Assembly: GCA_965203555.1 (NCBI GenBank)
Contig: CBDBCY010000004.1
Coordinates: forward strand, 640,001-704,000
DNA: 64,000 nucleotides
Direction: 5' to 3'
Source of the DNA: Acidimicrobiia bacterium
Lineage (GTDB): Bacteria; Actinomycetota; Acidimicrobiia; Spongiisociales; ZC4RG35
Positions 47,808 through 61,605 of the stretch are shown here, in pieces. The translations under genes were made by a program, and so were the position numbers. The notes beneath the pieces were generated by a model. It was not told the origin of the DNA and made no database searches. It saw only the letters and a program-made list of their open reading frames with translations. Position 1 is the stretch's first letter. Each line of letters starts with the position of its first letter.

Positions 47808-49022
47808 TCATTTTCGTTGTTTGATCGGGCGTCGGCGCGTGGGTCGGCGTCGGCGGTTCCGGTACTTAGGTCGGGGTGGGCGTCCCCATTGGGTGGGTGG
47901 TGGGCGGAGCCGGTAGGCGCCGGTTGTAGTGCGTTCAACCTGCCAGTCATTGTCGTGGACCTTGTGGTGGCATCTGCTGCACAGAAGACACATGTTGTCC
48001 AGGTTCGTGAGACCCCCGTCTTGCCAGTGGACGATGTGATGCGCCTGGCACCAGGAGGCCTTGGCGCCGCACCCCACACAGTGTTTGTCCCGGGCGACCA
48101 GCGCGGCCCGCTGGGAACCGCTGGCCGTCCGCCGGGCCCGTCCCACATCCAACGGCACCGACGAACCCGCAAAGACCGCCGGGAGGACCTGAGCGTCACA
48201 GGCCAACTGCCGCAGGGTACGGGCGGGCAGGGGGGTTCCGTTCTCCAGGCGAGGGTTGCCCAACTGTTGGCTGACCGCGTCATAGTCGGCGATCAACAAC
48301 AGGCGCACCCCCTGGGAACGACCGTCCCCTTCCCGAGTAAGGAGCTTGGCTATGGCGTCGGCCATCCGCTGACCCGCAGTAGCCCGATTCCTGGGATCTT
48401 CCTTGTGCCAGAGTTGGTTCATCATGTGAGACACCGCCGTCTCGACCCGGGCGCCGGTGACCGGGTCGAACCTCCCATAAAGAACGGTCATTCCGTCGTC
48501 CTGGTCGGTGGTGATCTTCGCGAACCGGCGGGAACGCTGATGCTCCAACTTCGACACACCATCATCTTGGGAGCGTTGTTGTTCGTGTTTGCGTACCGTC
48601 CGGGCGAACTTGTCAGGAGACTGGGAACGGGCACCGTCCAACAACTCGTCCTCGACAATGGCTCCCCTCTGATTGGCACCCGCCAAAATACGGGCGTTGT
48701 CAGCAGAGATCTCTCCCTTTAGGAAACCCTCCCGTGTCTTGGGCAGCTCCTCCAACCCCCGGGCGGTCTCCACCTCCGACCGGGCCTTCCGACGGCCCAA
48801 CAGCCCGTCCTCCCGCAAAATCGTTTCCACCTTCTCCGTTCCCTGGCGGCGGCGCAACTCCGACACCGCCTCAGCGCGGACCGCGGCGGCCTGGTTCTGG
48901 ACACAGATGGTGGACTGTATACGCTGTTTCAGTTCTTCAACCGACGCCTCCACCACCGGCATGGTGGGCGCCAGCAACTTGGCCAGGTTGGCGGACCGCC
49001 GACTGTCGACTGCTTGTTTCAT
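47808..49022 (-). CDS. DUF222 + HNH nuclease (REP13E12-like)
   Basis: GEISADNA, QRMADAI, LACDA, PLDVGRARR, RDKHCVGC..CQAHHIVHWQDGGLTNLDNMCLLCSRCHHKVH. Confidence 0.9.
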   Translation of the reverse strand: MKQAVDSRRSANLAKLLAPTMPVVEASVEELKQRIQSTICVQNQAAAVRAEAVSELRRRQGTEKVETILREDGLLGRRKARSEVETARGLEELPKTREGFLKGEISADNARILAGANQRGAIVEDELLDGARSQSPDKFARTVRKHEQQRSQDDGVSKLEHQRSRRFAKITTDQDDGMTVLYGRFDPVTGARVETAVSHMMNQLWHKEDPRNRATAGQRMADAIAKLLTREGDGRSQGVRLLLIADYDAVSQQLGNPRLENGTPLPARTLRQLACDAQVLPAVFAGSSVPLDVGRARRTASGSQRAALVARDKHCVGCGAKASWCQAHHIVHWQDGGLTNLDNMCLLCSRCHHKVHDNDWQVERTTTGAYRLRPPPTQWGRPPRPKYRNRRRRPTRRRPIKQRK

Positions 49023-49028
49023 GTGTAC

Positions 49029-49050
49029 AGTATGCAAAAGGGGTGTGACA
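49029..49050 (-). promoter_or_regulatory. RecA-NDp/PafBC-like leaderless promoter of the HNH gene
   Basis: TGTCAC-N10-CATACT-N6-ATG. Confidence 0.55.
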
Positions 49051-49441: not shown

Positions 49442-49463
49442 TGTCACACCCTCTTGCCATCCT
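49442..49463 (+). promoter_or_regulatory. second TGTCACACCC-type promoter, upstream of the lipoprotein gene
   Basis: TGTCAC-N10-CATCCT, same architecture as 49029-49050. Confidence 0.45.
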
Positions 49464-49563: not shown

Positions 49564-50190
49564 ATGAAGAAGCTACTGATAGTTGCCGCTCTTGCGGCCG
49601 CTGCTCTAGTCGGCGCTTGTGTCGAGGCGGATTCGCAGGACGCTTCAAGCAATGCAGTTGATCAGGACACGATCTCAAGCGAAACACCAACAACGACCAC
49701 GAGGCAAACGACGACGACCACCTCGCCGTATCTCATAAGAAACGGGTTGAAGATATGGACTCATTCCACCGAACGGTCACCGATCCCAATGCGGGAATTC
49801 GGCATCGTGGGCTACTGGCAAGTGGAAGTGCTCAGTGTCGTTGACAATGCCACACGCACTGTGCTGAGTGAGAACCAATTCAATGAGGCACCCCCTTCTG
49901 GCTGGAGGTACGCCCTGGTACAGGTAAGGTTGACAAACATAGATGAGGAGTTCCGCACTCCATGGCTGGAAGTTGATTTCAGCGCTTTGGCGAACGACGG
50001 AAAAGTGGGAACCGAGTGCAGTGAGGTCATTCCAGGCGAAGTGGACACTCTGCAAGAGATTCCGCCCGGGGGCAGCATTCAAGGTAATGTCTGCGTGGTA
50101 GTTCCTGCCGGTCAGTCCTTCCTGCTGATCACCGGTGGAGATGATATCTGGACGGATGTCGCGCCGAATCAATTCCATTCAACTCGCTGA
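49564..50190 (+). CDS. lipoprotein with a Thr-rich linker and DUF4352-like beta domain
   Basis: RBS AAGGAG, signal peptide with lipobox VGAC, PPGGSIQGNVCVVVP. Confidence 0.75.
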   Translation: MKKLLIVAALAAAALVGACVEADSQDASSNAVDQDTISSETPTTTTRQTTTTTSPYLIRNGLKIWTHSTERSPIPMREFGIVGYWQVEVLSVVDNATRTVLSENQFNEAPPSGWRYALVQVRLTNIDEEFRTPWLEVDFSALANDGKVGTECSEVIPGEVDTLQEIPPGGSIQGNVCVVVPAGQSFLLITGGDDIWTDVAPNQFHSTR

Positions 50191-59416: not shown

Positions 59417-59917
59417 TCAGTGACCGCCCCGTTTGACGCCGCCGTACTTCATCCGGGTGTCGCTCATGGCCGCGGCCCGGATGGTGTCGTCGCGGATACC
59501 CGCATCCACCACCTCTCCTATGAACAGAGTGTGCGTTCCCATATCCCAGGCGTATCGAACCTGGCAGTCCATGTAGGCGATGGCGTCCTCGAAGACGGGC
59601 GCTCCGGTCTTTCCGATCCTTACCGGGCGGTCATTGAGGGTCATACCTCTCCGTACGGCCGGTTTCGAGAATTTTACGAACACCCGCTTGTCGGCTGGAT
59701 CCCACAAGTTGACCGTGAAACTCCCTCCTGCACTGATCAGCCGATGGGTTACCGCGCTGTTGTCGACCCCGATACCGATCAGAACCGGTTCCATGGACAG
59801 TTGGGTGATCCAGGAGGTGGTCATTCCGTTCCAGGTCTCACCCGAGGCGGATCCCACCAGAGCCAGTGCATTGGGAATCTTCCAAGTGACCTTGTTTAGC
59901 AGTTGGTTTGAAAGCAT
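59417..59917 (-). CDS. flavin reductase family protein
   Basis: NGMTTSWITQLSMEP, TGAPV, GTHTLFIGEV, YGG. Confidence 0.9.
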   Translation of the reverse strand: MLSNQLLNKVTWKIPNALALVGSASGETWNGMTTSWITQLSMEPVLIGIGVDNSAVTHRLISAGGSFTVNLWDPADKRVFVKFSKPAVRRGMTLNDRPVRIGKTGAPVFEDAIAYMDCQVRYAWDMGTHTLFIGEVVDAGIRDDTIRAAAMSDTRMKYGGVKRGGH

Positions 59918-59937
59918 GTGTTGTATTCTGGCAGACT

Positions 59938-60423
59938 GTGCGGGTTTTGGTTTGCACTTCGGGTGTGCTTCAGGCACCGCCGGTCATCGATATTTGTGCT
60001 TCACTGGTGGGCGAAAGAGGAAAAGTTGTGATCCTCACGGTGGTCCAGGTACCCCGATCCCTGCTCAGCAAGTTCCGGCGCAAGCCACGCTCCTTCCTTT
60101 TCGAAACCCCCGAGGAGAATCCCCACCACGCCTCGGCTGAAGAGGAAGACTACATCCGCGAGCGTGGAGAGCGGGCGGTAGCCACCCTGGCAAGCGGTTT
60201 CCGGGCGGCGGGGATCGACCCGGAACTGTCCTATGTGGCCGGCCACGACTTGGCGGGGGCGATCGTTGCCCAAGCCGAGAAGATGCATGCCGACCTCATC
60301 GTCATGGGCGCCACCCGCCAGTTCTTCGAACCCGACGTGTGGTCGTCGGTGACCGCCCGGGTCAGCCGAATCTGCGAACGTCCCCTGCTGCTGATGCCCA
60401 CCAAAGGCCGCAATCCACCTTAA
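59938..60423 (+). CDS. universal stress protein
   Basis: RVLVCTSG, ILTVVQVP, AIVAQAEKMHADLIVMG, SSVTARV..PLLL. Confidence 0.85.
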   Translation: MRVLVCTSGVLQAPPVIDICASLVGERGKVVILTVVQVPRSLLSKFRRKPRSFLFETPEENPHHASAEEEDYIRERGERAVATLASGFRAAGIDPELSYVAGHDLAGAIVAQAEKMHADLIVMGATRQFFEPDVWSSVTARVSRICERPLLLMPTKGRNPP

Positions 60424-60429
60424 GACATT

Positions 60430-60698
60430 CTCGGCCCCGACGTCGACCGGGGACAACACCTGCCAAAGCCCAAAGGTCAGGGGCACCGCTGCGACCGCCG
60501 TCCTCTTAATTTTGGGATTCCCTCCCGACCCGCCGCCTCCTTGCCACCGCCGAAGTCCGGATGCGTGCAGGACTATCCGAAACCGAAGGTTCTGTCGTCG
60601 GCCAGCAGCCCTGTCTCGGGGAAAGACGGTTGAGATTCTTCTCCCCGAAACCAGGGCCATCTGATGAGGGCGGTCCGGACCGCACACCACATGTTTGT
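60430..60698 (-). ncRNA. candidate structured sRNA (Ms1/6S-like?)
   Basis: Promoter TTGTCT-17-CATATT (60733-60705); long hairpin 60608-60657; long-range GACCGCC/GGCGGTC pairing (60669-75 with 60493-99). Confidence 0.45.
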
Positions 60699-60804
60699 CT
60701 ATCCAATATGCGATGCCCCTGGGACAAAGACAAGGATTTCCAATGGTTTCGAAGGAGGATTTTTCGCGACTCTCTCTTCTCTCAATCATTGCCAAAGGAG
60801 AAAT

Positions 60805-61605
60805 TCAGGCAACACCCCGGCCTTGATTGATCGCTTGGCGCATATCCGCCGCCGCCGCCGCCGCATCAGGAGCGGTGGTGATGGCCCGAGAACTGTTGAT
60901 GATCAATCCCCGTCCCCGGGAGTTGAGCCCCGCCTGCAATGCCTCTTGCAGATCGCCGCCCTGGGCGCCGACTCCGGGAGCCAGAAAAGTCATATCACCT
61001 GCCAGTCGACGAGCCACACGCAGATCGTCGGGACGGGTGGCGCCCATCACCAGCAAGCAGTTACCCAGCACGTTCCACTCCCGCGCAACCATACGCGCCA
61101 CCCGCTGCCAGAGGGGCTCTCCCTCCACCGTCACGGTCTGCAGATCATCGGCGCCCGGATTGGAGGTGCGGCACAGGATGATGCAGCCCCGGTCCGCCCG
61201 CTCCAGGAACGGGAGGAGGGCGTCTTTTCCCAACCACGGGTTGAGAGTTACCGCGTCGAATCCCAGTTGGTCGAAGAGAAACCGCGCATAAGCCTCGCTG
61301 GTGGAACCGATGTCGGCGCGTTTGGCGTCTCCGATCACCGGGACATCCGGATGGCGAGAAGCCAGATAATCCATGATCTTCTCCAAAGAGGCGATCCCGG
61401 CAGAGCCTCGCGCTTCGTAGAAGGCCAGATTGGGTTTGAAGGCGCAGACATAATGATGGGTCTGGGAAATCACCCGCCGACCCCACTCGAACAACGGGTC
61501 GCCGCCGTCGCCCAGCAACAACCCCGGGGCGGGGTCCAAACCCACACACAGCAGGCTTTGAGTATCTTCCATCCGAGCGTTGAGCCGCTCCTCGAACCCG
61601 CCCAT
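60805..61605 (-). CDS. pyrF: orotidine-5'-phosphate decarboxylase
   Basis: LCVGLDP, FKPNLAFYE, DAKRADIGST, RTSNPG, PGVGAQGG, NSSRAI. Confidence 0.95.
   Translation of the reverse strand: MGGFEERLNARMEDTQSLLCVGLDPAPGLLLGDGGDPLFEWGRRVISQTHHYVCAFKPNLAFYEARGSAGIASLEKIMDYLASRHPDVPVIGDAKRADIGSTSEAYARFLFDQLGFDAVTLNPWLGKDALLPFLERADRGCIILCRTSNPGADDLQTVTVEGEPLWQRVARMVAREWNVLGNCLLVMGATRPDDLRVARRLAGDMTFLAPGVGAQGGDLQEALQAGLNSRGRGLIINSSRAITTAPDAAAAAADMRQAINQGRGVA

Follow-up and report, generated by a model that had tools for sequence, protein, structure and literature searches.

The DNA window analyzed here, 64,000 nucleotides (nt) of an Acidimicrobiia bacterium (G000:C4:640001-704000 in a genome of 3.4 Mb; positions below are those of the window), holds a 381-nt gap at 60424-60804, flanked by convergent genes for a universal stress protein (USP) and for orotidine-5'-phosphate decarboxylase (pyrF). 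A preliminary description of this gap, sized there at about 380 bp, had seen no credible open reading frame (ORF) and had proposed a structured RNA with its own minus-strand promoter, possibly of the Ms1 or 6S kind. We find that the gap holds one member of a dispersed family of intergenic elements in which a promoter motif of DNA-damage type precedes a set of covarying helices. With moderate confidence, we read this family as DNA-damage-linked small RNA genes that spread like a miniature inverted-repeat transposable element (MITE) and are loosely tied to DUF222-HNH elements.

Taken on the single sequence, the promoter and hairpin features do not exceed what chance could give. For the 194-nt RNA, the predicted fold has a minimum free energy of −78.4 kcal/mol (z = −1.48 against dinucleotide shuffles, with 16 of 200 shuffles equaling it). 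A consensus promoter and terminator scan of the gap found no U-tailed terminator and reported 0 sites; the latter result arises because the promoter hexamers score just 8/12 against the consensus, and the scan is too strict for such hexamers. The features listed in the preliminary description are in place: minus-strand TTGTCT (60733-60728), a 17-nt spacer, and CATATT (60710-60705); a hairpin of about 20 bp with minus-strand arms at 60658-60637 and 60626-60607; the small hairpins AACC-TTC-GGTT (60591-60581) and CGGAT/ATCCG (within 60579-60558); and a GC hairpin at 60452-60435. Comparison among copies raises such features above chance, through a promoter core held at a fixed distance from the RNA and through helices that covary.

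A BLAST search of the genome with the gap returned 13 matches including its own locus, the others at 70-86% identity. nhmmer recovered 11 copies, and five rounds of profile iteration extended the set to 49 copies of 108-260 nt, 45 of which overlap no gene under crude gene calls. Fifteen copies lie between convergent genes and 4 between divergent genes; between co-oriented genes, 19 point along the genes and 11 against them. We classed 47 of the 49—12 as type A, 18 as B1, 12 as B2, and 5 as other—with type A comprising the long copies that carry the tail GGCGGGUCGGGAGGG, the gap copy among them.

All copies share one layout. On the 5' side, an A-tract preceded by GT[CT]G[CT]G is followed by TTGAC, TGTCnCA, about 10 nt, and CAYAYTG; on the 3' side come AAACA(C/U), a first hairpin around GGUCCG, variable hairpins, and a G-rich 3' block. 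Type-B copies are bracketed, as judged by eye, by the inverted repeats GT[CT]G[CT]GAAAA ... TTTTC[GA]C[GA]A, their left-end motif being paired with TTTTCGCGA(C/G) at the opposite end. The type-A copy in the gap has the left motif GTCGCGAAAAA only and no right-hand one; GTCGCGAA is nearly invariant among the orthologous gap copies, and a GT[CA]G[CT]G[AG]A motif stands upstream of 16 of 45 distinct type-A loci. Separately, most B2 copies are followed by a doubled motif, TTTTCGCG(A/G)G-ATAGNG-N5-TTTTCGCG(A/G)G, placed 15-25 nt past the G-rich tail of type-B copies (L031, L033, and L042, for example); TTTTCGCG occurs 101 times in the genome, 34 of them within 150 nt of a copy.

The family is present throughout the genus. 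The preliminary description had proposed collecting homologs and checking them for covariation. A covariance model of type A (R1, described below) finds 95 copies in 17 of 17 genus genomes, at 1-12 per genome and with 12 in the genome studied here, and the helices covary in the alignment fitted to it. R1 finds 0 copies in 150 other genomes sampled from the same order, a sample that may include genome G021. Type B likewise occurs in all 17 genus genomes, with 2-24 BLAST matches each, many of them at contig ends of the draft assemblies. A pattern scan of public genomes gave at least 80 loci, with 26 full-length R1 matches among the loci listed; record titles of the listed loci are Acidimicrobiia or Acidimicrobiaceae metagenome-assembled genomes, metagenome-assembled genomes titled simply "bacterium," and one "Candidatus Spongiisociaceae bacterium," a family of Acidimicrobiia. 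That last record, of 5.05 Mb (L098), has one full-length type-A match at 79.6 bits, which suggests that the family extends beyond the genus, by descent or by transfer between symbionts.

The copy between the USP gene and pyrF has persisted for long, whereas other copies have been gained and lost. Among 16 sister genomes, it is full length in 12, truncated in one (G012), and missing in two, where the gap measures 73 nt (G006) and 60 nt (G011). A colinear alignment of the whole locus across seven sister genomes (G001-G004, G007, G008, and G010) shows 71-80% identity. Among the orthologous copies, promoter blocks, loops, and tail are invariant, and the long hairpin changes in sequence with its pairing kept. 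For two type-B copies, the orthologous spacers of five sister genomes were compared: four lack the first copy, and three lack the second, which the other two have; the empty spacers, of 30-90 nt, are too diverged to define a target-site duplication. In G009, the corresponding gap spans 3.8 kb (L075, G009:C1:43000-48600), and transposase genes of the IS3 family (HTH_Tnp_1 + rve) and the IS110 family replace the RNA gene.

We set the R1 structure by hand from the individual folds of eight orthologs and their visible compensatory changes, giving a model of 204 positions and 41 pairs. It matches the gap copy at G000:C4:700500-700702(-) with 74.6 bits (E 2.3e-17), and its start, at window position 60702, agrees with the start near 60698 that the preliminary description had proposed. 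Applied to 62 loci, R1 aligns 24 full-length type-A sequences and one truncated copy, with type B matched over the G-rich tail only, the sole part common to both types at the level of the covariance model. Standard pairs fill 88.8% of cells in this alignment, a level that 0 of 500 shuffles attain, compared with 77.0% after shuffling; the shuffle control overstates significance because type-A copies are related. Changes on both sides are seen in 34 of 41 pairs. These counts come from an alignment fitted to R1 and so lean towards the structure. When partners are slid by 1-3 columns, pairing falls to 34-53%.

Support differs among the helices (Table 1). In Pa/Pb, pair 13-46 is CG in 12 sequences and GC in 12, and pair 25-39 is GC in 17 and CG in 8. 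Pc has changed on both sides in 15 of 15 pairs, with 84.7% and 91.0% of cells paired in model helices 4 and 5; P5 shows compensatory changes in 8 of 9 pairs with 89.7% of cells paired; Pd, at 79.8%, has the weakest support. In type B, a crude register search finds 6 or 7 of the 7 pairs of the first hairpin intact in 26 of 31 copies. The folded strand is also indicated: type A has 68 G-U cells against 28 A-C cells, which fits the minus strand of the window, and the first hairpin of type B favors the same strand (20 against 8). The direction of the promoter agrees with it.

Several other structures and a coding alternative were rejected. The preliminary description had closed a long domain with a stem GACCGCC/GGCGGTC; both stretches are there, at 60675-60669 and 60499-60493, and their pairing is unsupported, since GACCGC is the 3' arm of the covarying local hairpin (columns 25-39 above) and its downstream partner is unconserved among orthologs. 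A long-range helix between AGCCGACGAC and the G-rich tail is paired in 73.8% of cells, equal to the shuffled mean, with 354 of 500 shuffles as good and no covariation. RNAalifold on MAFFT alignments gave a poor or wrong consensus, for example by pairing the invariant UCCGGAC with GUCGGGA where neither side varies. Open frames compared between orthologs yielded no conserved protein—the longest differ in frame and sequence—and a small-protein reading was rejected on this ground.

Table 1. Elements of the USP-pyrF gap and its flanks, in window coordinates
Feature	Position	Strand	Basis
USP gene, flank	59908..60423	+	Pfam Usp, E 1.1e-09
GC-rich palindrome CCCCGGTCGACGTCGGGG, starting 12 nt past the USP stop codon	60435..60452	.	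located on sequence
Putative structured RNA, type A, ~195-200 nt; predicted start ~60698, conserved part ending ...GGGAAUCCCAAAAUUAAG at 60505	60500..60702	-	covariance model R1
Invariant G-rich tail GGAGGCGGCGGGUCGGGAGGG, then small hairpin Pe (GGG-AAU-CCC)	60514..60540	-	21 invariant or near-invariant columns; R1 helix 8
Helix P5, CGGAUAG...CAUCCG, capped by a conserved CCUGC loop	60558..60579	-	R1 helix 7
Conserved AGCCGACGAC block with short helix Pd (CCGA/UCGG)	60583..60602	-	R1 helix 6
Helix Pc (~20-bp hairpin); sequence free to vary between copies, pairing kept	60607..60658	-	R1 helices 4-5
Helices Pa and Pb; outer stem Pa, (C)AUG.UGGUG/CAUCA.(G)AUG	60658..60693	-	fold and R1 helices 1-3
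Inner hairpin Pb, GCGGU-CCGG-ACCGC, with invariant UCCGGA top	60683-60670	-	fold and covariation
TGTCCC-N10-CATATT, PafBC/RecA-NDp-type bipartite motif (-26 element 60721-60726, -10 60705-60710)	60705..60726	-	motif match
-35-like hexamer TTGTCT, 17 nt from -10; family consensus TTGAC	60728..60733	-	TTG conserved in type-A upstream regions
GTCGCGAAAAA motif, placed ~30 nt before the -35-like hexamer; in type-B relatives it makes up the left terminal inverted repeat	60760..60770	-	located on sequence
pyrF, flank; upstream of the RNA on the same strand	60805..61605	-	Pfam OMPdecase, E 2e-31

The promoter of the gap copy reads in full TGTCCC-AGGGGCATCG-CATATT, with the conserved TGTCnC exactly 10 nt before the −10 element. 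Of 45 distinct type-A upstream regions, drawn from many genomes, 43 contain a GTC-N12-14-A-N3-T core whose distance to the RNA is fixed. Judged by its letters, the promoter fits the GTC-containing PafBC/RecA-NDp layout. PMC8635444 gives the PafBC motif as tGTCgg(N10)tA(N3)T, its GTC (−27 to −25) being nearly invariant; PafB recognizes this GTC near −26, recognition of the −10 element falls to the housekeeping sigma factor, and the promoters are described there without a −35 element. The extra −35-like TTG of the RNA copies suggests a promoter that can fire without an activator and be boosted by one.

The same motif marks repair genes in this genome. It lies 35 nt upstream of recA as TGTCACAGCGGTTCTATAGCTT, recA also having TGTCAC, and, with AC, CC, or GC after TGTC, it precedes genes for a SMC/RecN-like ATPase, a 1775-aa DEAD+UvrD helicase, DnaB, a DinG-like exonuclease-helicase, a PD-(D/E)XK nuclease, and RecR. 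It also precedes 25 of 26 DUF222-HNH genes, as TGTCACACCCC...TGCATACT, about 6 nt ahead of the ATG. A possible activator is a pair of adjacent WYL-domain ORFs of 315 and 417 aa (C4:2618597 and C4:2619532). As in M. smegmatis and M. tuberculosis, then, a GTC-containing −26 element, N10, and a −10 element stand before recA, repair genes, and 13E12-type HNH genes. The predicted product here differs in being a non-coding RNA, and the motif differs as well, with TGTC(C/A/T)C rather than TGTCGG, a −10 element starting with C, and a conserved −35-like TTG.

Further sites of this kind occur apart from the RNA family. At C4:319334 (+), TGTCCC-N10-AAATTT stands 15 nt before a gene for a proteasomal ATPase (Mpa/ARC-like), so the damage motif may be linked to a Pup-proteasome locus. 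Within the window, a PafBC-type motif TGTCACACCCTCTTGCCATCCT at 49442-49463 (+) lies 101 nt before a 208-aa ORF (49564-50190) that has no Pfam match and is divergent from the DUF222-HNH gene of the window. About a dozen more TGTCACACC(C) sites are found in the genome, ahead of genes without a known family or of no called gene.

The tie to DUF222-HNH genes is visible in the genomic setting. Twelve proteins flanking copies form one cluster with DUF222 and HNH domains, and 11 of the 26 DUF222 matches in the genome lie within 500 nt of a copy, compared with about 0.4 estimated by chance. In six type-A cases, the RNA and a DUF222-HNH gene face each other as a unit [RNA ->][<- DUF222-HNH gene], 92-109 nt apart; two type-B copies precede a DUF222-HNH gene and point the same way, and 38 of 49 copies, including the gap copy, stand alone. 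The TTTTCACAAC motif upstream of DUF222-HNH genes is the mirror image of GTTGTGAAAA at the type-B left end. In M. tuberculosis, 13E12 (DUF222-HNH) genes are damage-induced and have RecA_NDp or LexA sites (PMC3381160).

The element resembles the REP13E12/DUF222-HNH units of mycobacteria in being a dispersed repeat family with a damage promoter in an actinobacterium, and in the direct physical linkage of six type-A and several type-B copies to DUF222-HNH genes. It differs in being a non-coding companion rather than the nuclease gene, with most copies alone. Among the DUF222-HNH genes, one lies in the window itself (47808-49037, minus strand), 11.5 kb from the RNA, with promoter TGTCACACCCCTTTTGCATACT and its ATG within about 6 nt, a spacing that suggests a leaderless mRNA. 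Many DUF222-HNH genes share a conserved non-coding upstream stretch of 60-200 nt with TTTAGTGTTTGTTTTCACAACTTAGTGAT (for example at C4: 135729, 1262558, 2305478, and 687808), and some of these stretches also hold pieces (TTCTGTCACC..., GGTGGGTCGGGTG) resembling a collapsed copy of the RNA element.

We favor a scheme in which the gap would encode a structured small RNA some 195-200 nt long, transcribed on the minus strand from about 60698 to about 60505. The gap copy is an old, positionally conserved member of a family scattered over sponge- and coral-associated Acidimicrobiia of a single genus-level group; each copy has a promoter of its own, made up of a −35-like TTG(A/T)C, a PafBC-type −26 element TGTCnC, and a −10 element CAnAnT. 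Because the promoter combines these three elements, the housekeeping RNA polymerase holoenzyme would most likely transcribe the RNA, with a PafBC-like activator raising its output after DNA damage alongside that of recA, repair helicases, and DUF222-HNH genes. The RNA is predicted to fold into the five local helices Pa/Pb, Pc, Pd, P5, and Pe; its invariant single-stranded UCCGGA loop, its CCUGC loop, and its G-rich tail are likely contacts for a protein or another nucleic acid, through which it may act in trans. The family at the same time behaves like a non-autonomous mobile element, with its varying copy number, its filled and empty sites, and the terminal inverted repeats of type B.

A number of observations weigh against this scheme. 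The motif is loose: TGTCNN-N10-NANNNT has 267 intergenic matches in the genome. The RNA copies keep a −35-like TTG(A/T)C, unlike PafBC promoters, and the recA and DUF222-HNH promoters of this genome are without it; GG is replaced by CC, AC, or TC in the −26 element, and the −10 element opens with C in place of T. The WYL-domain pair is only a putative PafBC. The single-sequence fold is no better than its shuffles, the covariation counts carry the two limits given above, and the strand bias is by itself no proof of RNA, G-T wobble being tolerated in single-stranded DNA too. RNA contigs of one library cover parts of the USP gene and pyrF and not the gap, and are uninformative on transcription.

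The family could instead be a purely selfish, MITE-like DNA repeat whose hairpins act in DNA, such as by offering a nuclease or transposase a single-stranded or cruciform site, with any transcript incidental and without function for the host; we hold this to be clearly less probable, though it is the strongest of the alternatives. Copies vary from genome to genome (1-12 of type A, 2-24 BLAST matches of type B), a given site may be occupied in one species and empty in another, type B has inverted-repeat ends, contigs of the draft assemblies often end in the repeat, and 11 of 49 copies lie within 500 nt of a DUF222-HNH gene, all as such a repeat would have it. It fits poorly with the gap copy, which has a left-hand motif only, and with the lack of any definable target-site duplication. 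Moreover, the USP-pyrF copy is kept in 12 of 16 species with its promoter intact and its stems rewritten under preserved pairing, which indicates selection on that copy itself, and the complete promoter is conserved at 43 of 45 loci.

Known intergenic repeats provide a reference for this comparison. Correia, ERIC, and BOX elements are promoter-bearing or structured MITEs or intergenic repeats. Set beside them, the present family is alike in being short, non-coding, intergenic, variable in copy number, found at filled and empty sites, and, in type B, bounded by inverted ends. It differs in that a complete inward-facing promoter is followed by a five-helix fold, in that covariation of this fold is seen even within a single orthologous locus followed through 12 species, and in that no target duplication was found.

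The physical link to DUF222-HNH genes raises another reading, which we consider improbable: that the RNA is a nucleic-acid partner of these nucleases—a scaffold, guide, antidote, or homing aid. HEARO, or omega RNA, an HNH-endonuclease-associated RNA, serves IscB in this way, and it too is structured, a few hundred nt long, present in many copies, and often found beside an HNH nuclease gene. A promoter type common to 25 of 26 DUF222-HNH genes, down to the unusual CATAYT −10 element, speaks for such a partnership, as do the proximity of 11 of those 26 genes to a copy, the six convergent type-A units, the two co-directional type-B copies, and the mirrored TTTTCACAAC motif. The association loosens outside this genome, however: among 23 type-A copies in five other genomes, one adjoins a DUF222 match, and copy numbers do not track (4 type-A RNAs against 2 DUF222 matches in G004; 2 against 5 in G007). 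Even here, 38 of 49 copies are solitary.

The molecules themselves also differ from the IscB system. No Rfam family matches the RNA, and no freely variable single-stranded segment resembling a guide was seen, the variable part being a paired hairpin. The DUF222-HNH protein is without a RuvC domain and scores 35.3 bits with the guided_IscB model, against a cut-off of 175. A search of the PDB with this protein found no sequence relative, and its AlphaFold2 model is poor (mean predicted local distance difference test score 59.8, predicted template modeling score 0.41). Were the partnership real, DNA damage would induce the RNA and the nucleases together through their shared promoter type, the RNA would serve to guide, scaffold, or restrain the nucleases, and the REP13E12 repeats, long unexplained, would become an RNA-dependent nuclease system.

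That the element is a cis-acting piece of its neighbors rather than an independent gene—a long 3' untranslated region or terminator region of pyrF, or a landing pad for mobile elements—is very unlikely in our estimate. It does follow pyrF immediately on the same strand, convergent gene pairs flank 15 of 49 copies and divergent pairs just 4, and IS3- and IS110-family transposase genes occupy the gap in G009. Yet copies stand beside unrelated genes in all orientations, each with its own conserved promoter, and the gap has no U-tailed terminator.

Least credible of all, and already disfavored by the searches, is the proposal in the preliminary description that the element encodes a divergent RNA of the Ms1 or 6S kind, binding RNA polymerase. 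The searches suggested there bear directly on it: Rfam 15 gave 0 matches at gathering score over the whole window, and across 60300-60900 at E ≤ 10 just two chance matches, SMCR2_1 and isrG, with no Ms1 and no 6S; the element belongs to no Rfam family, which agrees with the new RNA family proposed earlier as the alternative. RF00013 finds no 6S RNA in the whole genome, so the role may be vacant, a result of little weight because the model misses a Corynebacterium control too. Ms1 RNA is encoded by a single, positionally conserved gene and folds into a rod in which the 5' end pairs with the 3' end. The present RNA shares with Ms1 and 6S a similar size of about 200 nt, a promoter of its own, and its non-coding nature; it differs in matching no model, in being multicopy with a number that varies, in a branched fold of five separate local helices with no 5'-3' closing rod and no central bubble, the long-range stems once proposed being unsupported, and in being confined to one genus-level group and one further Acidimicrobiia record. 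The Ms1-like order of short stretches noted earlier is backed by no result. What does survive of the earlier proposal is a non-coding structured element with its own minus-strand promoter, supported by the promoter motif, the covariation, and the absence of a conserved ORF.

In the abstracts and passages covered of literature on DUF222-HNH, REP13E12, RecA-NDp/PafBC, 13E12 repeats with DNA damage, and PafBC with small RNA, this RNA family is undescribed, and those on REP13E12/DUF222-HNH mention no RNA companion. According to a 2019 PafBC paper (PMC6789036), small RNAs had until then not been implicated in how mycobacteria respond to DNA damage. If transcribed as proposed, the family would be a set of small RNAs wired to a PafBC-type response and would give the DUF222-HNH (13E12) repeat genes their first described non-coding companion. 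With the model, 49 loci here and 95 type-A loci across the genus can be annotated as one family instead of being met one by one as unexplained structure. The reach is narrow: uncultivated symbionts of sponges and corals in one genus-level group, together with one related record.

At the USP end of the gap, the GC-rich palindrome lacks sequence conservation among orthologs; it is probably a terminator hairpin for the USP gene, the RNA, or both.

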